DNA of 64,000 nt from Escherichia coli. Its GTDB lineage: Bacteria; Pseudomonadota; Gammaproteobacteria; Enterobacterales; Enterobacteriaceae. The position numbers and the translations under genes were made by a program. How positions within the stretch are numbered: the stretch's first letter is position 1; every line of letters starts with the position of its first letter. Of this stretch, positions 3,558 through 63,103 are shown one piece after another. Location of the stretch: NCBI RefSeq assembly GCF_050320075.1, contig NZ_CP190018.1; one strand, written 5' to 3'. Below the pieces are notes generated by a model, which worked only from the letters and a program-made list of their open reading frames with translations, was not told the DNA's origin and did not search any database.

Positions 3558-3842
3558 ATGATTATGAAAAATTGTCTACTGTTGGGCGCGCTTTTAATGG
3601 GCTTTACTGGTGTGGCGATGGCGCAAAGTGTCACCGTCGATGTGCCGAGTGGATACAAAGTGGTTGTGGTTCCTGATTCAGTCAGCGTTCCACAAGCGGT
3701 CAGCGTCGCGACTGTGCCGTAAACCGTCTATGTGGCTCCTGCGCCAGCTCCGGCTTACCGCCCGCATCCTTATGTTCGCCATCTTGCCAGCGTAGGTGAA
3801 GGGATGGTTATCGAACACCAGATTGACGACCATCACCATTAA
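3558..3842 (+). pseudogene. ybjH: ybjH interrupted by in-frame TAA (3720-3722) after codon 54; downstream 39 codons remain in frame to TAA at 3840-3842
   Basis: MIMKNCLLLGALLMGFTGVAMA signal-peptide-like N-terminus; reading through the internal stop gives a 94-codon protein ending ...IDDHHH. Confidence 0.6.
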
Positions 3843-12303: not shown

Positions 12304-12690
12304 ATGGGTGTGTATAAGGCAAGACGATTCAGCCAAAGCACGAAAAAACTTGGTATTCACGATAAAGTTCTCATGGCTGCCGCTGAAGAAGTGATGCAGG
12401 GCATATGGGAGGCTGATTTAGGTAGCGGTGTCATCAAAAAACGTTTACCCCTCCAACAAGGAAAGAGTGGTGGAGCCAGAACAATTATCTTTTTTAAATC
12501 AGCAAATCATGTGTTTTTTTATGATGGTTGGTCCAAGAGTGGTCTAAGCAGTAAAGGAACCAAAGAAATCGAAGATGATGAACTGGCGGCCTACAAAAAA
12601 ATGGCAAATGCATTTCTGGCCTTTAGCAATAAGCAAATAGAGGATTTGATCGAAACTGGCTTTTTGATTGAGGTGAAAAATGAGCGATAA
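12304..12690 (+). CDS. RelE/HigB-2-like type II toxin (GKSGGAR motif)
   Basis: 128-aa ORF; motif QQGKSGGARTIIFF resembles recalled HigB-2/RelE-like toxins; precedes and overlaps an HTH antitoxin gene by 11 nt; absent from the K-12 rimO-dgcI interval. Confidence 0.75.
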   Translation: MGVYKARRFSQSTKKLGIHDKVLMAAAEEVMQGIWEADLGSGVIKKRLPLQQGKSGGARTIIFFKSANHVFFYDGWSKSGLSSKGTKEIEDDELAAYKKMANAFLAFSNKQIEDLIETGFLIEVKNER

Positions 12691-13009
12691 ATTACAAATG
12701 ATGCTGGAAGATGCAAAGGAACTGAATGCACTGGGCCTGATGTCTGATAGTGAAGTTGATGCCATTGCCGTCATGGTCAAAGCTCGTGAAGTCAGCGCCC
12801 GTATAGCCAAAGTCAAATCAATGACGGGTGAAGAGATCAAAGCCATCCGCACCCGATACGGCATGTCACAATCCGTGCTGGCACATACAATGGGAATGTC
12901 AAAAGAAAGTGTCTCGAAATGGGAACGAAATGAAATAAAACCGAGCGGCCCGGCACTACGTATTTTGAATACATTGGCAATAAAAGGGCCGGAAGTTTTT
13001 GCAAAGTAA
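12680..13009 (+). CDS. XRE-family HTH antitoxin (HigA-2-like)
   Basis: 109-aa ORF; C-terminal HTH (GMSQSVLAHTMGMSKESVSKWERNEIKPSGPALRILNTL); ATG lies inside the toxin gene 3' end. Confidence 0.75.
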   Translation: MSDKLQMMLEDAKELNALGLMSDSEVDAIAVMVKAREVSARIAKVKSMTGEEIKAIRTRYGMSQSVLAHTMGMSKESVSKWERNEIKPSGPALRILNTLAIKGPEVFAK

Positions 13010-13037
13010 AATGTTTGCAAATGATTTACCACATTCA

Positions 13038-13065
13038 TTAGTACCCCTTGATTAAGGGGTACTAA
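13038..13065. terminator. Hairpin between antitoxin gene and convergent dgcI
   Basis: TTAGTACCCCTT-GATT-AAGGGGTACTAA, ~12-bp stem with 4-nt loop. Confidence 0.55.
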
Positions 13066-13078
13066 CACTATTCTAATT

Positions 13079-14407
13079 CTACTGCCAGCTAATCTGTGCC
13101 CTGCCGTTTTTCTTACTCTTATACAGTCGCTCATCCGCCAGCATTTTCAAGCGTTCAACGGTAGGACATTCATTTGAATGCGCTACACCGATACTGGTGC
13201 TTAAATTAATGCTTCCCACCTGGAAATGAACAATTTCTTTTAGAATCGATAGCAACTCTTCCAGCGTTCCACCCGTATAAATCACCGCAAATTCGTCACC
13301 GCCGAAGCGGTAGACTTTACCTTTATCTACCGGGATCTGTGATTTAAGGATTTTCACCACTTTCATCAACACTTCATCGCCCAGCAAATGACCGAAAGTG
13401 TCGTTGATGTTTTTGAATTTATCGACGTCAAACAGGCACAAATATCCGCCTTTTTCCGGCAGGGCTTTTAAATCTTCGTCAAAGGATTTTCTGCCCATCG
13501 CTTTGGTCAGGTCATCCAGGAACGCCGAGTTATACAGACTGTAGAGTTTTTTGACATCGGCAGCTGAAAAGAAAAGCCCGCCATCCAGTACGCGTTCAAA
13601 ATGGTTATTAATGATGGCTTCTTTCTCCACAATACCACGATTAATCACTCTGCGTACCAGATAGAGGCAACTGACACCCGATATCACTGCCACCAATGCG
13701 GCAAAGAAAATAATCAATGTACAGACCCGCAAATAAACATCTTTTTTATACGCAAATACGTACAATCCGGTCGGCAAATAGGCGAAGTGCTCCATCGCTT
13801 CCGAAACGGTGAAGATGGCGTTTTTAGCATTAAATTCATCACCGGTCACCGGTTTACCGTTCTTAAACAGAGAGAACATCAGGTTCTCGCTATCCATCGC
13901 CAGCGATTTTGACAGTAAAGAAAAACGCTCCAGACCAAGCAAAAATATCAGACTACGATTATGAGTTACCGGATAGAGGTAATAGACGAAGGTTTTACCG
14001 TCAAAAGAGATAAACCCTGTATTTTTGACATGTCGATACTTCACAATCTGCATAATATCTGCACAATAATTTTTCTCGAACTCCTTTACCTGAATACATT
14101 CGTCACTGGAAATCAGATAAGGACCGACATCGTACAAATAAGAGGGTGAAACCGAGTCGGCGTAAGCTGTGCGCAAGCCAACCAACAGCTGTTCCTCCGT
14201 GGGATTTAGCGTGTTGATAAGATCAATTGCCACGCTACGCCGATATTCAGCAATATTTGCCACCGCAAAAGCAGTATCAATAACGGACTGTTTCAGGCCA
14301 TACACCCGTTCCTTTACCATTTGAGTGTAGATCCCGCAGGCAACTGCTGAAATCATGATAAAAATCAGCAGACTGACTGTAAGTACGAACTTATTGATTC
14401 TGGACAT
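13079..14407 (-). CDS. dgcI: Diguanylate cyclase DgcI (YliF)
   Basis: 442-aa ORF with N-terminal TM segments and GGDEF domain (RFGGDEF). Confidence 0.9.
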
Positions 14408-16479
14408 ACGTAAACTACTCTTTTACTAATTTTCCACTTTTATCCCAGGCGGAGAACGGCATGGGTTTCTGGTACAGATACCCCTGAGCCTGAACACATC
14501 CTAATTTGATTAATTCGCGCGCAACGTCTTCGCTCTCTACGCCTTCCGCAATCACCGGGATCCGGTTATAGCGTGCCAGATCGAAAATAATGCGCACAAT
14601 TTTTCCCGCAGTACCGAAAATATCGCCGGTAAATTGTGAGTCCACCTTTATGCTATCTGGATTAATTTCATAAAAACGTTTCAGGTTTGACAAACCGGTG
14701 CCAAAGTCATCAATCGATATCCGTACCCCTTGTTTACGCAGTTGTTCAATATTGAGATAAAAATGTTCATTAATTCGCTCGATCACGGTTTCAGTGATCT
14801 CAACACATAGGCTGTTCGCCTTCAGGCCATTTTCTTTCATGATGGTGGTAAAACGCTCATGAAAGTGTGGTTCGTTTAACTGCCAGGGCGAAACATTAAT
14901 ATGCAGTAAGAAATCATCCTTCAGCGACGCACGCTGACTAAAATGTCTGAATTCACCCATTGCCGTTTTAATAATCTGATAACCCAGCTCATTGATAAAC
15001 CCGATATCTTCAGCAATGGTAATGAACTTTAGCGGTGAAATGATCCCCCGCTCCGCAGACACCCAACGGCACAACGCCTCCGCGCCCAGAATGGCGCGGG
15101 TGTTAATATCAACGATCGGTTGATAGACGAGGAATAGTTCGCCAATTTCCATTGCATGGCGAATATTACGCGCAATCCAGATATTCTCTTCTATTTCGTT
15201 GAGTTTCGCGTCATCACAGAAAATAAACTCTGAGAACATATGGTCACGGATACTGGAAATCGCCAGTTTCAGTTTTTCTGCGTAACTCCAGGCGTTTTCT
15301 CCCTGCAAAGGTTCACAAATGGCAGACTTATGGATGCGCAGATTGCGGTAGCCAAAGCTGCTGTCAAAATCGTTTATCATCGCTATTTTACGGGTAAATG
15401 TCTGTACATTTTCCCGGCACAGAAGTAAATAGAGATCGGCATTGAATGTCACGATATCGCAGCATTGCGCATATTTCTCGGCAATTCGCTGACACAATTT
15501 CCTGACGATTTTATTGCGTTCATCAACACCAAACACCGCTTCCACGGCTTCCAGACCACACAGTTTGATGATCCCCACAGCCAGATACTGATTATTGTTG
15601 GACTCAATAATCGCCATATTTTTAATAAAACCGCTTTCCTGATCGTAAGAGATCAGTGAGAGCAATTTATTTGACCGTTCAATTTCGGCATCTTTCATTT
15701 CCGCGATCGAATTTTTGATGCTGATAATCTCTTTCGCATCGCCTTCGCGAATTTTCAGAGCCTCGATCTGATCCGTTGAGTCGGGCAAAAACGCCAGCGT
15801 ATTAACCAGCTCGGTCATTTCAGAAAATTGCCGACGGAACACACGAGTGGTCATTAAATAAACCACCAGCAATACGATAATAATGAAAGCAAACGGCAGA
15901 TAAAAAAGTTTATCTGATGCGTTCAATAAATTACCGCCAGGATAATAAAAATAGATTTCGAATAATGCGTTGTTTGGCACCGCTGATGTTTTTTCGATAT
16001 ATTCAGTATCGACAGAATCAATAATATTATAATTACCTTCGCTATTATAAATAATCAGTTTTTCACGCGCGAGTTGATTCTTGGCAATGATCTCATGGCC
16101 TTGTTTCAAAAATAGAACTTCATCATTAGCGCTGATTTGATCAAGATACTCGTTCAGATATCGCCAGTTTAAATCGACATGTATTTTATCCACCGCTAAC
16201 AAATCGTGATCTTTGCCGTTGATGCGTAGCGTAAAAGAGATACATTTTTTACCCGGACGATCAAAGCAATTGTAGGCCGGATTCCAGCTGTTGTTAGAGT
16301 CATCTGAAGCCACCGACCATGGTCGTTTCGATGGATTAAAATCGGCAAAAATAACCCGCCCTGACTCGTCGACAAGCGGTCCATTTACTTCTTCCTGATG
16401 ATAAACAACGATTTTATCATTCGCCCTCCGCGAAAAGAGATAATATTTATTATCATCAAGTACCAGTCCCACCGAGTCT

Positions 16480-16487
16480 AAAAATGG
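16480..16487. repeat. IS1 target-site duplication, left copy (AAAAATGG)
   Basis: 8 bp identical to 17256-17263, immediately flanking the IS1 terminal inverted repeats. Confidence 0.7.
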
Positions 16488-16502
16488 GGTAATGACTCCA
16501 AC

Positions 16503-17006
16503 TTATTGATAGTGTTTTATGTTCAGATAATGCCCGATGACTTTGTCATGCAGCTCCACCGATTTTGAGAACGACAGCGACTTCCGTCCCAGCCGTGCCA
16601 GGTGCTGCCTCAGATTCAGGTTATGCCGCTCAATTCGCTGCGTATATCGCTTGCTGATTACGTGCAGCTTTCCCTTCAGGCGGGATTCATACAGCGGCCA
16701 GCCATCCGTCATCCATATCACCACGTCAAAGGGTGACAGCAGGCTCATAAGACGCCCCAGCGTCGCCATAGTGCGTTCACCGAATACGTGCGCAACAACC
16801 GTCTTCCGGAGCCTGTCATACGCGTAAAACAGCCAGCGCTGGCGCGATTTAGCCCCGACGTATCCCCACTGTTCGTCCATTTCCGCGCAGACGATGACGT
16901 CACTGCCCGGCTGTATGCGCGAGGTTACCGACTGCGGCCTGAGTTTTTTAAATGGCGGAAAATCGTGTTGAGGCCAACGCCCATAATGCGGGCAGTTGCC
17001 CGGCAT
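16503..17006 (-). CDS. insB: IS1 transposase InsB (expressed as InsAB' by -1 frameshift)
   Basis: 167-aa ORF, matches recalled IS1 InsB. Confidence 0.9.
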
Positions 17007-17200
17007 CCAACGCCATTCATGGCCATATCAATGATTTTCTGGTGCGTACCGGGTTGAGAAGCGGTGTAAGTGAACTGCAGTTGCCATGTTTTACGGCAGT
17101 GAGAGCAGAGATAGCGCTGATGTCCGGCGGTGCTTTTGCCGTTACGCACCACCCCGTCAGTAGCTGAACAGGAGGGACAGCTGATAGAAACAGAAGCCAC
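16925..17200 (-). CDS. insA: IS1 InsA repressor
   Basis: 91-aa ORF beginning [40 protein letters not shown] (zinc-finger and HTH). Confidence 0.9.
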
Positions 17201-17255
17201 TGGAGCACCTCAAAAACACCATCATACACTAAATCAGTAAGTTGGCAGCATCACC

Positions 17256-17263
17256 AAAAATGG
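17256..17263. repeat. IS1 target-site duplication, right copy (AAAAATGG)
   Basis: Identical to 16480-16487. Confidence 0.7.
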
Positions 17264-17716
17264 CATCATTTCCATTTTAAGGATCACAGCGCGTTGAATC
17301 TCCTCTGTATTTTTTAATAAATACAGTGAGTCCTTTAATGTCAGGGCCGAACGTTCAATATCTTTAAAGAAATAGCCAACGTTTTTCTGAATAAGTTCAA
17401 AGCGGCTATCGGCACGTTTTACCGCGCGTTCCGAAACCAGTTGATAGTTAATGATGAAAAAAAGGCCAATAAATGACAGTGCTGCCAATAAAAATAAAAT
17501 TATCAGCCTTATCTTTATCTTTTCGTATAAACTCAGCATGTTAATACATTTAACAAAATAACTGTCTGAACGCTGTGCCGCTGCAAAAACAGTCCCTTGC
17601 TGCGGCTTTTTAACCAAATTACCCGATTCTACAAAATCAGCAGAAAGTTACAACACTTGCTTAGGGCAATAATTTCCTGTGAGGTGATTACCCTTTCAAG
17701 CAATATTCAAACGTAA

Positions 17717-18628
17717 CTATCCTTTAATTTTCGGATCCAGCGCATCGCGTAAACCATCACCCAACAAATTGAACGCCAGTACAGTCAGAAAAATAGCCAG
17801 GGCCGGAAAAATAGCGACATGCGGCGCGATAACCATATCCGCTCGGGCCTCATTGAGCATTGCACCCCACTCTGGTGTCGGCGGCTGCGCACCGAGGCCG
17901 AGAAATGACAGGCTGGCGGCAGAGATAATCGAGGTACCGATGCGCATGGTGAAAAACACCACGATAGAAGAGACAGTCCCGGGCAAGATATGGCGCAATA
18001 AGATGGTCATGTCGCTGGCACCAATACTGCGCGCCGATTCAATAAAAGTTTGCTGTTTCAACACCAGCGTGTTGCCACGCACCAGACGGGCAAAAGCCGG
18101 AATGGAAAAAATGGCGACTGCAATAATCACGTTAGCAATGCCGCTTCCCAACACCGCAACAACAGCGATCGCCAGTAAAATACCCGGGAAGGCAAACAGC
18201 ACATCGCAAATGCGCATGATCAGCCGATCCCACCAGCCTTCATAATATCCAGCCAGCAAACCCAGCAACGTCCCGATCGCCGCACCGATAAACACGGCAA
18301 ACACGCCCGCCGCCAGCGAGATTTGCGCACCAACCAGGACACGGCTGAAAATGTCACGCCCCAGTGAATCGACGCCAAACCAGTGCTGCAAAGAAGGTCC
18401 GTTATTCAGATTGTCATAATCAAAATAATTTTCGGCGTCATAGGGAACGATCCAACGTGCAAAAATGGCCACCACAATCAATAAAATAACGAATAATGCG
18501 GCGGTCATCGCCATATGCTGACGGCGAAATCGTCGCCAGAATTCATGCCACGGTGTACGTACCTGGTCAGGTTTGACCAGTGGCATGGCGTTTAACACCG
18601 CCTGACGTCGCCAGTTAAATAGTCGCAT
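17717..18628 (-). CDS. gsiD: Glutathione ABC transporter permease GsiD
   Basis: 303-aa ORF, ABC permease. Confidence 0.9.
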
Positions 18629-31467: not shown

Positions 31468-32733
31468 ATGGCTTCTACTTTTACCAGCGACACATTGCCT
31501 GCCGATCACAAAGCAGCTATCCGTCAGATGAAGCACGCGCTGCGGGCGCAGCTTGGCGACGTCCAGCAGATCTTTAATCAGCTAAGCGATGACATTGCCA
31601 CGCGAGTGGCTGAAATCAACGCACTCAAAGCACAGGGCGATGCCGTCTGGCCGGTGCTGTCTTATGCCGATATCAAAGCAGGTCATGTTACTGCAGAGCA
31701 GCGCATACAGATTAAACGTCGCGGTTGTGCGGTGATAAAAGGCCATTTCCCCCGCGAACAAGCGCTAGGCTGGGATCAGTCGATGCTGGACTATCTGGAC
31801 CGCAACCGCTTTGACGAGGTCTACAAAGGCCCCGGCGATAATTTCTTCGGGACGCTCAGCGCTTCACGTCCCGAGATTTACCCCATCTACTGGTCGCAGG
31901 CGCAAATGCAGGCTCGCCAGAGTGAAGAAATGGCGAATGCGCAGTCGTTTCTCAATCGTCTGTGGACATTTGAAAGTGATGGAAAGCAATGGTTTAACCC
32001 GGATGTGAGCGTCATCTACCCTGACCGTATCCGCCGCCGTCCGCCCGGAACGACCTCCAAAGGTCTTGGAGCGCATACCGACTCCGGGGCACTGGAACGC
32101 TGGCTGCTTCCAGCGTATCAGCGCGTTTTCGCCAACGTCTTTAATGGCAATCTGGCGCAATATGATCCCTGGCATGCGGCACATCGTACGGAAGTTGAAG
32201 AGTACACGGTGGACAACACCACCAAATGTTCCGTGTTTCGGACATTCCAGGGCTGGACAGCGCTCTCTGATATGCTGCCTGGTCAGGGGCTGCTGCACGT
32301 CGTGCCCATTCCTGAAGCCATGGCGTACGTACTGTTACGTCCGCTGCTTGATGATGTGCCGGAGGATGAACTGTGCGGCGTAGCGCCCGGAAGAGTATTG
32401 CCGGTATCAGAGCAATGGCATCCACTGTTGATTGAGGCGTTAACCAGCATTCCAAAACTCGAAGCCGGAGACTCCGTCTGGTGGCACTGCGACGTCATCC
32501 ATTCCGTTGCCCCCGTTGAAAATCAACAGGGCTGGGGCAACGTGATGTACATTCCTGCGGCACCGATGTGCGAGAAAAATCTTGCCTACGCGCACAAGGT
32601 GAAGGCCGCACTGGAAAAAGGCGCATCGCCGGGCGACTTCCCGCGCGAGGACTATGAAACAAACTGGGAAGGACGCTTTACGCTTGCCGACCTCAACATT
32701 CACGGTAAGCGAGCGTTGGGAATCGACAGCTGA
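31468..32733 (+). CDS. ybiU: DUF1479-family protein YbiU
   Basis: ORF 31462..32733; ATG 31468 (MASTFTSDTLPADHK); 421 aa. Confidence 0.85.
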   Translation: MASTFTSDTLPADHKAAIRQMKHALRAQLGDVQQIFNQLSDDIATRVAEINALKAQGDAVWPVLSYADIKAGHVTAEQRIQIKRRGCAVIKGHFPREQALGWDQSMLDYLDRNRFDEVYKGPGDNFFGTLSASRPEIYPIYWSQAQMQARQSEEMANAQSFLNRLWTFESDGKQWFNPDVSVIYPDRIRRRPPGTTSKGLGAHTDSGALERWLLPAYQRVFANVFNGNLAQYDPWHAAHRTEVEEYTVDNTTKCSVFRTFQGWTALSDMLPGQGLLHVVPIPEAMAYVLLRPLLDDVPEDELCGVAPGRVLPVSEQWHPLLIEALTSIPKLEAGDSVWWHCDVIHSVAPVENQQGWGNVMYIPAAPMCEKNLAYAHKVKAALEKGASPGDFPREDYETNWEGRFTLADLNIHGKRALGIDS

Positions 32734-33803
32734 GTGTCGTACAGCCCTTCCCGTTCCACGGCGGTGTTCCCTTTTCCTGGGCGAACCCGCCGCACTGACT
32801 CCCGCACCGCCAATCGTCCGTGCAGCAGCAGCGAGCCCACCGGAGCATCCGGGCGAATCAGCCGCTGTTGCAACATTTGCACCGCTTCATTGCCTAGCTC
32901 ATCGCGTGGCACATGCACAGCCGTCAGGGGAACATCCTCGATTGCCGCAAGGTTAAAGCCGTCGATACTCATCACCGAGACATCCTGTGGTACGCGCAGA
33001 CCACGACGATGTAGCGCATTTACCGTTCCCGCCGCCATAAAATCCCCGCCGACCAGAAACGCCGTCGGCAACGTCTTGCCATTGGCGGCATCCAGCCACG
33101 CTCCGACCTTTTCTTCCGCTTCTTTAGCGCTAAAACTGCTGATATTCAGCAAATGACGGTCATGGTGAAAGGCCAGATTATGCTGACGCCATGATTCTTT
33201 AATCCCTGCAAACCGCTGCTCCATAGTGTAGCGGCGCAGGCACATCACATTCATCACCTCCCGGTGACCCATTTCAAACAGATAGCGGGCGGCGAACGCG
33301 CCAATTAACCGATGGTCCGGCGCAATCGCCGGGAGGCGCATTCGTTCATCACGGCAGTTGATCAGCACACAAGGCTTAGCGAGATCGGCGGCCAGATCAT
33401 GGATGTGCGGATCGTCAATCCCCAGCAGGATCGCCGCCTGCGTATCTGCTTCATTCATTCGCGAGAGAAATAGCGCGGGATCGCTGTCAAACTCCTCCAG
33501 CGCGCAGTAACGCAGCCGCACTTCATGCGGCGATAACGCTTTGCTGATGCTCTGGATCACACGGTAATAAAAGATATCAGATCGTTGGTCAAAAGCGCGT
33601 TGCGGCGCGAAAATAATCAGGTTGTTCAGCAACATACGACCTGCTGCCATGCCATCCATCACGCCCAACTCACGCGCGCAGGCCAGCACCTGTTCGCGAG
33701 CGCGTGCACTGGTATTCGCTTTGCCAGCCAGCACCCGCGAAACCGTACTCGGCGATAGCCCGGTACGTGCGGCGATATCGGCGATTTTCAGCTTCTTGTC
33801 CAT
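32700..33803 (-). CDS. LacI/GalR-family transcriptional regulator (accessory island)
   Basis: ORF 32700..33881; start set at ATG 33801-33803 (MDKKLKIADIAARTGLSPSTVSRVLAG, N-terminal HTH); periplasmic-binding-like effector domain; last ~11 codons are antisense to the ybiU 3' end; not present between ybiU and ybiT in K-12. Confidence 0.8.
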   Translation of the reverse strand: MDKKLKIADIAARTGLSPSTVSRVLAGKANTSARAREQVLACARELGVMDGMAAGRMLLNNLIIFAPQRAFDQRSDIFYYRVIQSISKALSPHEVRLRYCALEEFDSDPALFLSRMNEADTQAAILLGIDDPHIHDLAADLAKPCVLINCRDERMRLPAIAPDHRLIGAFAARYLFEMGHREVMNVMCLRRYTMEQRFAGIKESWRQHNLAFHHDRHLLNISSFSAKEAEEKVGAWLDAANGKTLPTAFLVGGDFMAAGTVNALHRRGLRVPQDVSVMSIDGFNLAAIEDVPLTAVHVPRDELGNEAVQMLQQRLIRPDAPVGSLLLHGRLAVRESVRRVRPGKGNTAVEREGLYDTQLSIPNARLP

Positions 33804-34097
33804 TTTGTGATCTGCCTCTAATTCGGAAATGACAGAATTTTCATGAGCAAAAAAGCCCATTCTGTCTGGCATTAAATCCATTTCAGTAATGTATATCAGT
33901 CACTCATGGAAAAACGTGCACAAAACCCGCTTTCTTTCGCTTTTAGGGTCTCTTACTGTGAATTGGTAGAACAACTTCCATACAAAAATAATGGAAAAAC
34001 GAACAATAAAGACTTTATTTATCAAAAAGTTAAAAGTGGTGTGACAACTCCATTCTGACGTTGCCACACAAACCCTATACCATTCTGTGGAGTGCAT

Positions 34098-35399
34098 ATG
34101 AGTCAGGGTATCAATAACGATATGACTGCCAGTAAACCGCGCCATATCGTCAAAAATCTGCGTTGGTGGATACTGGTCCTTTTTTTGCTCGGTGTTACTG
34201 TCAACTACATCACGCGTAACTCGCTGGGTATTCTCGCCCCCGAACTGAAAAGCAACCTGGGGATTACCACCGAACAATATTCCTGGATTGTAGGTGCTTT
34301 CCAGCTCGCCTATACCCTATTCCAACCGTTGTGTGGATGGCTGATTGACGTCATTGGCCTCAAACTGGGCTTTATGATCTGCGCGGGACTGTGGGCGCTG
34401 GCCTGTCTGATGCATGCGGGGGCGGGAAACTGGGTACATCTGGCGCTGTTGCGCTTCTTTATGGGCGGTGCGGAAGCCGCGGCAACCCCAGCAAACGCCA
34501 AAACCATCGGTGAATGGTTTCCAAAATCAGAACGCCCGATCGCCGCAGGCTGGGCAGGCGTCGGTTTTTCCATCGGTGCCATGCTGGCCCCACCGATTAT
34601 CTATTTTGCCCACGCTTCATTCGGCTGGCAGGGTGCATTTATGTTCACTGGCATCCTGGCGATGCTGTGGGTGGTGCTGTGGTGGGCGTTCTATCACAAC
34701 CCGGATAAGCATCCGAACCTCAGCAAAGCCGAGCTGGACTTTATCCGCCAGGATAACGAAGCGCCCCCGATTAAATTACCCTTTCTGACCGCACTGAAAA
34801 CCGTGGGCAAAAATAAACGCTTTTACGGTATCGCTATCCCGGCCTTTATGGCAGAACCGGCGTGGGCGGTGATGAGTTTCTGGGTGCCGCTATACCTGTC
34901 CAAAACCTATGGCATGGACCTGAAGCAGATCGCATTATTCGCCTGGTTGCCGTTCCTCGCCGCTGATCTTGGCAGTATTGCCAGCGGCTATCTGACCAAA
35001 CTTTACACCCGCCTGTTTGGGCTGAGTCGTGTGAACTCCGTTGTCGCATCATCGGTCAGTGGCGCATTCTTGATGGTTTCGCTGGCGGTGATGGCCTTTA
35101 CCAATAACCCGTATATCGCCATCGTCCTTATTTCCATCGGCGGCTTCGGTCACCAGATCATCTCCTGCATGCTGAGCGCACTGGTGGTGGAATCCTTCGA
35201 CAAAGGTCAGATGGCCACTGTTAACGGCATGCGCGGTTCTGCCGCGTGGATCGCAAGTTTCCTGTTCTCCCTGATTATCGGGGTTACCGCTGACAAAATC
35301 GGCTTTAACCCCCTGTTTATCGCCATGGGCTTCTTTGACCTGATTGGCGCTTTCTTCCTGGTCACCTTTATTGCTGAACGTCGCGCAAAACGCGCCTGA
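34098..35399 (+). CDS. MFS transporter, anion:cation symporter family (ExuT/DgoT-like)
   Basis: ORF 34092..35399; ATG 34098 preceded by GTGGAG SD; 12-TM MFS; strong similarity pattern to recalled ExuT (e.g. TRN, FQPLCGWLIDVIG, GGAEAA, EWFP, FAWLPFLAADLG). Confidence 0.8.
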   Translation: MSQGINNDMTASKPRHIVKNLRWWILVLFLLGVTVNYITRNSLGILAPELKSNLGITTEQYSWIVGAFQLAYTLFQPLCGWLIDVIGLKLGFMICAGLWALACLMHAGAGNWVHLALLRFFMGGAEAAATPANAKTIGEWFPKSERPIAAGWAGVGFSIGAMLAPPIIYFAHASFGWQGAFMFTGILAMLWVVLWWAFYHNPDKHPNLSKAELDFIRQDNEAPPIKLPFLTALKTVGKNKRFYGIAIPAFMAEPAWAVMSFWVPLYLSKTYGMDLKQIALFAWLPFLAADLGSIASGYLTKLYTRLFGLSRVNSVVASSVSGAFLMVSLAVMAFTNNPYIAIVLISIGGFGHQIISCMLSALVVESFDKGQMATVNGMRGSAAWIASFLFSLIIGVTADKIGFNPLFIAMGFFDLIGAFFLVTFIAERRAKRA

Positions 35400-35413
35400 G
35401 AGTGGATGTAAAC

Positions 35414-37777
35414 ATGAAAACGCTGAAAAACTGGACCCTGCACAAACAGTCTGCCCACCACGTTGAACTGCTGGTCGATGGCCAGCATATCCTGTGCCTG
35501 TACGTGCTGGAAGAAAATCTGTTCCGCGTGCTGTTAAAACGCAAAGGCGAGCTGGCGCTGGATCGCACCTGGAGCATTGCTCCGGCGCAGGATGTGCCAT
35601 GGGAAGGGCGCAGCCGCGAAGATCTCAGCGGCTTTAGCCTGCCCGCGTGGACATTGATCCAGCACGACGACACCGTGGTTATCGCCACCGAGTCACTGCG
35701 TGCCACCGTTCACCAGCCGCTGTGGCTGGAGTGGCACTATCGTAACAACGAAGGCGAATGGCTGCCGTTGGTGAATGACCGCCCGACCAGCGCTTATCTG
35801 CTGAATGCCCACGGCGATGGCGTGGCACACTATCAGAGCCGTCGTAAAGATGAACGCTTTTATGGCCTCGGAGATAAAGCCGGCGACCTGCAACGCAACG
35901 GTAAACGTTACGAGATGCGTAACCTCGACGCGATGGGCTACAACGCCGTTAGTACTGACCCGCTGTACAAACACATTCCATTCACCATCACCCGCCGCGA
36001 TGACATTAGCTTCGGCCTGTTTTATGACAACCTCAGCAGCTGCTGGCTGGATCTGGGCAACGAGATCGACAACTACCACACCGCCTATCGCCGCTGGCAG
36101 GCGGAAGCGGGTGATATCGACTACTACCTGTTTACCGGCGAACGCGTACTTGATATCACCAAAGCCTTCGTACGCCTGACCGGCAAAACCCTGTTCGGAC
36201 CGAAATGGAGCCTGGGCTACAGCGGTTCAACTATGCACTACACCGATGCGCCGGACGCACAAAATCAGTTGATGAACTTTATCCGCCTGTGTGAAGAACA
36301 TGCGATTCCCTGCGATTCGTTCCAGCTCTCTTCCGGTTATACCTCAATTAACGGCAAGCGCTATGTGTTCAACTGGAATTACGACAAAGTGCCGCAGCCG
36401 AAAGTGATGAGCCAGGCATTTCACAATGCTGGTTTGCACCTGGCCGCCAATATCAAGCCGTGCCTGTTGCAGGATCACCCACGCTATAACGAAGTGGCAG
36501 AAAGAGGACTGTTCATCCGTGATTCAGAAACAGATGAACCAGAACGTTCCAGCTTCTGGGATGACGAAGGTTCTAACCTCGACTTTACTAATCCGCAGAC
36601 CATCCAGTGGTGGCAGGAAGGCGTGACCACACAGCTTCTGGAGATGGGTATCGACTCCACCTGGAACGACAACAACGAATTCGAAGTATGGGACGGTGAA
36701 GCACGCTGTCACGGCTTTGGTCAGACGATCGCGATCAAACATATTCGCCCGGTGATGCCACTGCTGATGATGCGAGCCTCGATGGAAGCCCAGCAACGTT
36801 TCGCTCCGGAAAAACGTCCGTACTTGATCTCCCGCTCCGGCTGCGCGGGAATGCAGCGCTATGTGCAGACCTGGAGCGGCGATAACCGCACTAGCTGGGA
36901 CACTCTGCGCTACAACACCCGCATGGGTCTGGGGATGAGCCTCTCCGGGCTGTATAACCTCGGTCACGACGTCGGCGGTTTCTCCGGTGATAAGCCGGAC
37001 CCGGAACTGTTTGTACGCTGGGTACAAAACGGCGTGATGCATCCGCGCTTTACGATTCACTCGTGGAACGATGACCATACCGTAAACGAACCGTGGATGT
37101 ATCCGGGCGTCACTCCGGCGATCCGCAGCGCTATTGAGTTGCGCTATCGCCTGCTGCCCTACTTTTATACCCTGATGTGGCAGGCATACGCCGATGATGA
37201 ACCAATGCTGCGTCCGACTTTCCTTGACCACGAGCACGACGTTCAGACTTTTGAAGAGTGTGATGACTTCCTGCTTGGTCGCGATATTTTGGTTGCCAGC
37301 GTCGTAGAGCAAGGCGAGCGCCAGCGCCGTGTATGGCTGCCAGATAACGAAACTGGCTGGTACGATTTCTACAACGGCGAATGGTTCAGTGGCGGTCAGT
37401 GGATCACCCTCGACGCACCGCTGGAGAAACTGCCGCTGATGGTGCGTGCCGGGGCTGGTCTACCGCTCAGCAAACGCATCACCTATGTGAGCGCAGAACA
37501 AGACGATACCCGCGAACTGAAACTGTTCCCGCTGAAAGGTGTGGGCACAACGTCCGGCCTGCTGTTTGAAGACGATGGCGAAAGCTGGGGCTACCAAACT
37601 GGTAATGCGCTTTGGGTGGAATGGGAAATGGTTTGCGATGGGGCGACCATCAACCTGAAAGTCAACGCGCGCGGGGATTATCGACCTGCATGGAGTGCAC
37701 TGAAAGTGTCATTACCAGTGGAAGAAAAACGCACGCTGCTGGTCAATGGTGTTGAAGGGAGTGAATGGATGCGTTAA
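35414..37777 (+). CDS. Glycoside hydrolase family 31 enzyme (alpha-glucosidase-like), specificity unknown
   Basis: ORF 35402..37777; ATG 35414; GH31 signature regions WNDNNEF (nucleophile region, cf. WIDMNE), QTWSGDNRTSW (acid/base region), GHDVGGF. Confidence 0.8.
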   Translation: MKTLKNWTLHKQSAHHVELLVDGQHILCLYVLEENLFRVLLKRKGELALDRTWSIAPAQDVPWEGRSREDLSGFSLPAWTLIQHDDTVVIATESLRATVHQPLWLEWHYRNNEGEWLPLVNDRPTSAYLLNAHGDGVAHYQSRRKDERFYGLGDKAGDLQRNGKRYEMRNLDAMGYNAVSTDPLYKHIPFTITRRDDISFGLFYDNLSSCWLDLGNEIDNYHTAYRRWQAEAGDIDYYLFTGERVLDITKAFVRLTGKTLFGPKWSLGYSGSTMHYTDAPDAQNQLMNFIRLCEEHAIPCDSFQLSSGYTSINGKRYVFNWNYDKVPQPKVMSQAFHNAGLHLAANIKPCLLQDHPRYNEVAERGLFIRDSETDEPERSSFWDDEGSNLDFTNPQTIQWWQEGVTTQLLEMGIDSTWNDNNEFEVWDGEARCHGFGQTIAIKHIRPVMPLLMMRASMEAQQRFAPEKRPYLISRSGCAGMQRYVQTWSGDNRTSWDTLRYNTRMGLGMSLSGLYNLGHDVGGFSGDKPDPELFVRWVQNGVMHPRFTIHSWNDDHTVNEPWMYPGVTPAIRSAIELRYRLLPYFYTLMWQAYADDEPMLRPTFLDHEHDVQTFEECDDFLLGRDILVASVVEQGERQRRVWLPDNETGWYDFYNGEWFSGGQWITLDAPLEKLPLMVRAGAGLPLSKRITYVSAEQDDTRELKLFPLKGVGTTSGLLFEDDGESWGYQTGNALWVEWEMVCDGATINLKVNARGDYRPAWSALKVSLPVEEKRTLLVNGVEGSEWMR

Positions 37778-62381: not shown

Positions 62382-62663
62382 TTATTCCGCTGGCGGCCAT
62401 TGCAGAGCGGTATGTAAAACACGCAGTACCGAGAGCGTATCGCCCTCCACTTGATAGACAAGCACATAATGCGGCCTGACAACGGCTTCATGTGTACCAG
62501 CGACTCGTCCGGCCCGGTACATCTCCGGGCGTTCACAGGCCTGTTCCGCAATGGCTTCAAATTGATTATCAAGGGCTATTGCCGCTAGCGGATTATCTTT
62601 ACTGATGTATTCCATGATTTGCTCCCTGTCAGACAGGGACATTGGCTTCCATTCCAGACGCAT
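62382..62663 (-). CDS. ParE/RelE-superfamily toxin-like protein (accessory; occupies the K-12 ybiA position)
   Basis: 93-aa ORF; ParE-like features (N-terminal LSDREQIMEYI, central GR, C-terminal VLVYQVEGDTLSVLRVLH); start overlaps the upstream gene stop (TAATG). Confidence 0.7.
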   Translation of the reverse strand: MRLEWKPMSLSDREQIMEYISKDNPLAAIALDNQFEAIAEQACERPEMYRAGRVAGTHEAVVRPHYVLVYQVEGDTLSVLRVLHTALQWPPAE

Positions 62664-63103
62664 TAATCCCCCTTCAGCAAGGCTTTTTTACGGGCAGCAA
62701 ATAGACTTTTGGCCTCTTCATGAGAGAGTGCCGGGCGTGGATCGTCAATGGCGGCCTGCACCTGCTCTCGAAACCAGGCATCATACGCGGCAGCTTCATG
62801 AGCTCGTTTTAATGCCTCAGCCCTGTCTGGTCGGGTCGTTTTCTTCTGACCGTCCGGGTCGTAATTAGAGGCGTCGACTTCAAACCGGGCAATACCAACA
62901 TCTTTCAGGTAGTTGACAACCGTTTCCAGCCGTTTGAACAGGCGGATTTGCCGACTGCGTTGTGCTGCAAGAGGCCGTTCAGTGTGGCCGTATTTCACGG
63001 TCAACGACCAGCCTCCCTGGGTGCCAATAACGTGTGCTGCATCCACTACGCCAGATTCAACCAGTTTATGTAAGGTTGAGTGATCGATCGTTTCTGGTGC
63101 CAT
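62663..63103 (-). CDS. Hypothetical 146-aa protein, presumed cognate partner (antitoxin or regulator) of the ParE-like toxin
   Basis: ORF translationally coupled to the toxin gene; charged helical C-terminal region (RPDRAEALKRAHEAAAYDAWFREQVQAAIDDP...); N-terminal ~90 aa unassigned; much longer than typical ParD/Phd antitoxins. Confidence 0.6.
   Translation of the reverse strand: MAPETIDHSTLHKLVESGVVDAAHVIGTQGGWSLTVKYGHTERPLAAQRSRQIRLFKRLETVVNYLKDVGIARFEVDASNYDPDGQKKTTRPDRAEALKRAHEAAAYDAWFREQVQAAIDDPRPALSHEEAKSLFAARKKALLKGD

Follow-up and report, generated by a model that had tools for sequence, protein, structure and literature searches.

Is the IS1 element that lies within pdeI (yliE) in this E. 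coli genome the trace of a genuine and recent transposition, and what does it leave of pdeI itself and of dgcI next to it? The DNA analysed, hereafter the window, is a stretch of 64,000 nucleotides, in which pdeI sits between gsiD and dgcI; the gene order is that of K-12 MG1655. By reading of the sequence and with a script, a complete IS1 was located at 16488-17255 on the minus strand, with a length of exactly 768 bp. It is made up of the following parts:

17233 to 17255, minus strand: IRL, the left terminal inverted repeat of IS1, GGTGATGCTGCCAACTTACTGAT, read from the sequence
16488 to 16510, minus strand: IRR, the right terminal inverted repeat of IS1, GGTAATGACTCCAACTTATTGAT, in agreement with IRL at 18 of 23 positions
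16925 to 17200, minus strand: insA, 91 aa with a GTG start, taken from the list of open reading frames
16503 to 17006, minus strand: insB reading frame, joined to insA by a -1 frameshift to give InsAB' with 232 aa
16943 to 16949, minus strand: A6C slippery site AAAAAAC (IS nt 307-313) for the programmed -1 frameshift

IRR (GGTAATGACTCCAAC...) begins at 16488 and IRL (GGTGATGCTGCCAAC...) terminates at 17255, where the end of the element is the reverse complement of GGTGATGCTGCCAACTTACTGAT. The length of ~768 bp and the imperfect terminal inverted repeats of ~23 bp (GGTGATGCTGCC... / GGTAATGACTCC...) are those of an IS1. IRL carries the insA promoter region, and a promoter-like site, CTGCCA-16-TATGAT at 17248-17221 on the minus strand, is presumably the IS1 promoter. 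No other IS1 copy that could have served as donor was found within the window.

The insA product matches the NCBIfam model transpos_IS1 (N-terminal part) as well as the IS1/IS1595 zinc-binding domain, and its protein sequence is identical to InsA of the K-12 element IS1B. The IS1 transposase model matches both halves of the transposase, and the InsB part reaches 143.7 bits with NCBIfam NF033558 (cut-off 100). A -1 shift at the A6C site results in an uninterrupted InsAB' frame of 232 aa. In the sister genomes described below, the PGAP annotation notes a 'programmed frameshift' in IS1, and RefSeq labels the same element 'IS1-like element IS1B family transposase'. The original prediction of a complete 768-bp element with both terminal repeats, insA, insB and the A6C site was thus correct in all parts, and with all of these sequence features intact the IS1 appears functional.

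The element is flanked by a short direct repeat:

16480 to 16487: target-site duplication, copy at IRR, AAAAATGG
17256 to 17263: target-site duplication, copy at IRL, AAAAATGG

The repeat is exact over 8 bp. The neighbouring base on each side is mismatched, so that a duplication of 9 bp was rejected and its size is exactly 8 bp. Target duplications of IS1 normally comprise 8 or 9 bp (PMC12428005), and the one in the window falls within this range. By chance, 8 bp would match at two given positions with a probability of ~1.5e-5. A more direct test of the insertion than this probability was the reconstruction of the empty site. For this, the flanks were joined without IS1 and without one of the AAAAATGG copies to give a probe of 120 bp, which was searched in 5426 complete E. 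coli genomes. The empty site with a single AAAAATGG copy occurred in 5371 of them (99%), and examples with 100% identity are annotated as uninterrupted pdeI. A simple transposition with an 8-bp duplication at both junctions, as originally proposed, is therefore well founded, since the repeat is exact and the flanks are collinear with a site that is empty in nearly all genomes. The GC content of pdeI-dgcI is only 40-46%, compared to ~53% in the flanks. IS1 prefers AT-rich targets, and the low GC content of the locus fits this preference.

In total, 284 nt of pdeI precede IS1. The gene is indeed split by the element, but the break lies inside codon 95 and not at about codon 97 as first stated. 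The resulting parts of pdeI and its putative promoter are as follows:

17256 to 17539, minus strand: pdeI 5' fragment (nt 1-284, i.e. codons 1-94 plus the first two bases of codon 95) with TM1 and the initial 60 residues of CHASE9
14415 to 16487, minus strand: pdeI 3' fragment (residues 96-782) with the rest of the CHASE9/periplasmic region, TM2, the cytoplasmic linker and EAL
17626 to 17653, minus strand: candidate sigma-70 promoter for pdeI, located in the spacer between gsiD and pdeI, with 9 of 12 consensus positions, although such sites are no commoner in the region than in shuffled sequence

After removal of IS1 and one repeat copy, the rebuilt pdeI encodes 782 aa with 100% identity to the intact protein WP_001328220.1; two silent nucleotide differences were found. 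Pfam assigns CHASE9 to residues 35-150 (E 5e-62) and EAL to residues 532-767 (E 2e-69) of the rebuilt protein, and hydrophobic helices are located at residues ~12-30 (TM1) and ~286-304 (TM2). The EALxR motif, the sole catalytic motif examined, reads EALCR at residue 562. In YliE from CFT073, the full set of EAL catalytic residues conforms to the consensus (PMC3484386).

The break point is located within the periplasmic CHASE9 sensor domain. The 5' fragment runs into IRL and ends at a stop after 6 extra codons, giving 101 aa (residues 1-95 plus 6 residues encoded by the IS). With its frame split at nt 284 and the 5' part ending 6 codons into IRL, the gene is a pseudogene of pdeI. The 3' fragment keeps ~190 periplasmic residues, TM2 and the EAL domain and lacks the native start codon and promoter. 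The EAL domain had been described as left without its N-terminal membrane/sensor part. This holds for TM1 and the 60 CHASE9 residues before the break, which are detached, but the rest of the periplasmic region and TM2 are still joined to EAL.

Public annotation treats the two fragments differently. PGAP gives the 5' fragment, named 'CHASE9 sensor domain-containing protein, missing C-terminus', the status of a pseudogene, and this stub is the only part flagged in that way. The 3' fragment (14415-16493, minus strand) appears in RefSeq/PGAP as an intact 'sensor domain-containing phosphodiesterase' with 692 aa, WP_106475076.1, whose start is an ATT codon within the right repeat of IS1. This call of an intact coding sequence from ATT is an annotation artefact, and gene-content surveys of c-di-GMP enzymes could wrongly score pdeI as present.

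IS1 is a multicopy element, and short-read assemblies are often broken or confused by it. A copy misplaced into pdeI during assembly was weighed against the distribution of the junctions in other genomes, for which probes of 80 bp across each IS1-pdeI junction were compared with the 5426 complete E. coli genomes. Both junctions were present in only two of these, namely, YZLc1-3 from chicken faeces (Yangzhou, China) and Ec-U3 from human urine (Ouagadougou, Burkina Faso), and they were identical in these two independent genomes. In addition, the 692-aa product, which is specific for the insertion due to its IS1-derived N-terminus, was encoded on 43 public contigs, some of them larger than 5 Mb. 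The contig index lists it in 42 blocks, and seven of these contain contigs above 1 Mb. A version of the truncated product with a GTG start and 685 aa occurred on 60 public contigs. The perfect 8-bp duplication and the exact reconstruction of the empty site are traces of a real transposition as well. The original prediction had named an uninterrupted pdeI or other IS boundaries as the outcome that would refute it, and independent assemblies reproduce the same junctions instead. An assembly artefact was rejected on this ground; its probability is next to nil.

Over 50 kb, the window differs from YZLc1-3 at 5 positions and from Ec-U3 at 4. As it is identical to neither of them, it stems from another isolate, the third of this clone. 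A literature search yielded no publication on strain YZLc1-3. The IS1 allele at nt 284 is real and vertically inherited within a small, geographically spread clone. The insertion event is recent, and neither of the pdeI fragments has acquired a secondary lesion. The insertion is already visible in the RefSeq annotation of public genomes.

The start codons that come into question for the 3' fragment are ATT at 16493, which is inside the IS1 end and was chosen by RefSeq, and GTG at 16472. No promoter of its own was found in the sequence for the 3' fragment, and neither ATT nor GTG is preceded by a usable ribosome-binding site; the only GGAG is 2 nt away from ATT and 23 nt from GTG. Together with the loss of the export signal provided by TM1, this makes pdeI in all probability a null allele.

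The insertion could alternatively be activating, if transcription from IS1 or read-through and re-initiation after the insB stop yielded a truncated PdeI freed from its sensor, or if dgcI were driven by the element. IS1 and pdeI are co-oriented, and host transcription from upstream can enter a co-oriented IS1 (PMC12428005). The stop codon of insB and InsAB' (TAA, 16503-16505) is in frame with the pdeI fragment and lies 9 nt before ATT and 30 nt before GTG, so that re-initiation at a low level is conceivable, and PGAP does model the 692-aa product from the ATT codon in IRR. However, InsAB' is a rare frameshift product, and very few ribosomes would arrive at the insB stop, from where they would have to re-initiate at codons that lack a suitably spaced ribosome-binding site. 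Moreover, after the loss of TM1 no signal would be left to take the ~190 formerly periplasmic residues across the membrane, and dgcI is situated 2.07 kb past IS1, across untranslated RNA. Suppressor mutations in pdeI obtained in the laboratory can reportedly raise the motility of a pdeH mutant (cited in PMC12890032), which would fit an activating effect. On balance, an activating insertion is very unlikely, and the null allele is the preferred reading. With IS1 co-oriented, transcription from the pdeI promoter may enter insA and insB. At other loci, transcription reading into IS1 raised its transposition (PMC12428005).

The second gene that may be affected lies directly behind the 3' fragment:

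13079 to 14407, minus strand: dgcI, 442 aa, GAPES2 and GGDEF, intact, starting 7 nt after the pdeI stop

The GGDEF domain was detected with NCBIfam, GAPES2 and GGDEF were found by Pfam in the sister contigs, and the gene is annotated as dgcI in the sister genomes. Its position immediately downstream of pdeI on the same strand agrees with the original description. In CFT073, a temperature of 37 °C induces pdeI together with dgcI, which is consistent with co-transcription (PMC12890032). The original prediction allowed the insertion to be either polar on dgcI or to drive it. Insertions of IS1 are strongly polar in either orientation, as known from classical gal and lac genetics, for which the work of Jordan, Saedler and Starlinger in 1968 is reportedly an example. 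Given this polarity, the co-orientation and the 2.07 kb of untranslated RNA between IS1 and dgcI, reduced expression of dgcI is expected. IS1 is thus probably polar on dgcI, and this is more likely than IS1 driving the gene.

Polarity would matter less if dgcI had its own promoter in the 3' end of pdeI. In this case, pdeI would be lost while the intact dgcI of the window continued to be expressed, and local c-di-GMP would rise. A peak in genomic SELEX with the RpoN holoenzyme at the yliE/yliF junction of K-12, corresponding to ~14400-14420 of the window (PMC8743547), could mean such a promoter. DgcI is active in S. flexneri, whose intact PDE genes do not include pdeI (PMC13320778), so that dgcI can function without an intact pdeI. 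On the other hand, a good GG-N10-GC site for sigma-54 was missing from 14250-15000, which includes the last 600 bp of pdeI, and a sigma-70 scan of 13000-17800 gave 11 sites with 10.1 expected by chance, i.e. no more than shuffled sequence, and was uninformative with respect to a dgcI promoter. Furthermore, DgcI was undetectable in K-12, and expression of a reporter with its own upstream region was very low or absent (PMC5635695). The spacing of only 7 nt also suggests that dgcI depends on the transcription of pdeI and perhaps on its translation. Uncoupled expression of dgcI is hence rather improbable, though less so than an activating insertion, and reduced expression of dgcI remains the favoured outcome.

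Taken as a whole, a recent simple insertion of IS1 that made pdeI null and is expected to reduce dgcI expression is the best explanation of the locus, and we hold it with high confidence. In the ancestor from which a small E. coli clone descends, a simple transposition would have brought a functional-looking IS1 into pdeI, in its AT-rich 5' part, thereby generating the 8-bp target duplication and cutting the gene at codon 95 in the periplasmic CHASE9 domain. The 5' fragment would give rise to nothing but the 101-aa stub, while the 3' fragment would be deprived of the promoter, the start codon and the signal-anchor helix, leaving pdeI null. Due to the co-oriented IS1 and the 2.07 kb of pdeI downstream of it that would now be untranslated, less transcription would presumably reach dgcI. 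The insertion would then have been passed on vertically.

The insertion removes one of the many c-di-GMP phosphodiesterases of E. coli, and its phenotypic impact is probably small. For the change in local c-di-GMP turnover that was originally expected from the loss of PdeI, published work suggests a subtle effect at most. The CFT073 mutants whose motility changed significantly did not include the yliE deletion, and the deletion of yliF raised adherence (PMC3484386). The failure to detect DgcI in K-12 (PMC5635695) likewise speaks for a small impact. The insertion is a textbook IS1 knockout of a non-essential signalling gene and as such ordinary. The allele marks a small clone, recovered in China from chicken faeces and in Burkina Faso from human urine, and has little import beyond strain bookkeeping.

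Further features were observed in the window. Between rimO and dgcI, a gene for a toxin of the RelE/ParE family overlaps a helix-turn-helix antitoxin-like gene at 12304-13009 on the plus strand. Only 46 bp separate dgcI and rimO in K-12 MG1655, by which the pair is recognised as an accessory insertion; strain CFSAN061763 carries it as well. A second toxin gene of the RelE/ParE family with an adjacent hypothetical gene was found between dinG and rhlE at ~62382-63103 (from L008 12382-13103). Genes for a LacI-family regulator, an MFS transporter and a glycoside hydrolase of family 31 are located at 32700-37777 between ybiU and ybiT and are absent from this place in K-12 MG1655. In the annotation of both sister genomes, ybjH (3558-3842) is a pseudogene that contains an internal stop.

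IS1 has struck pdeI or dgcI independently in other lineages as well. In Ecol_AZ146 and one more genome, IS1 is inserted at nt 142 of pdeI (L013 2517-3284 in Ecol_AZ146). Strain 40EC carries an IS1B-type element at nt 1781 (L012 878-1645), and ten further genomes have an IS1A-type element at nt 1781, where the junction alignment contains a one-base gap. The different element types suggest two separate hits at one spot. In CFSAN061763, IS1 is found in the opposite orientation at nt 1095 of dgcI (L005 1118-1885). With the insertion of the window, at least four independent hits were seen in the module. By junction searches, which counted three alleles, IS1 was present in pdeI in at least 15 of the 5426 complete genomes; the other insertions came from a spread sample of genomes, and the number of pdeI disruptions is a lower bound. 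The repeated hits could be used to ask if some niches make the module superfluous or select against it. There is only a slight chance that selection makes pdeI-dgcI a recurrent target of IS1 in host-associated E. coli, or that a sensor-less PdeI fragment, produced by re-initiation after the in-frame insB stop, rewires the module so that the insertion is more than a knockout.

Compared to these insertions, the one in the window has the same orientation as those in pdeI of Ecol_AZ146 and 40EC, the two that were inspected directly. It differs in its duplication, which comprises 8 bp, whereas the other insertions examined in pdeI and dgcI have 9-bp duplications. The other insertions are also found at different positions and with different sequence variants of IS1, while the nt-284 allele is confined to its own clone. 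Among the elements of K-12, IS1B and IS1C are closest to the IS1 of the window with 3 differences in 768 nt (99.6% identity) and the same length, terminal repeats and gene organisation, followed by IS1A with 7 differences (99.1% identity). The sole residue of InsAB' that differs from IS1B is residue 217, which is L in the window and Q in IS1B. With regard to the module, the window resembles Shigella, as pdeI is likewise not among the intact PDE genes of S. flexneri and DgcI is retained there and active (PMC13320778). The c-di-GMP network of Shigella, however, is reduced wholesale with 19 of the genes pseudogenised or deleted, whereas the window shows a single gene hit, at the pdeI-dgcI locus of an otherwise ordinary E. 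coli.
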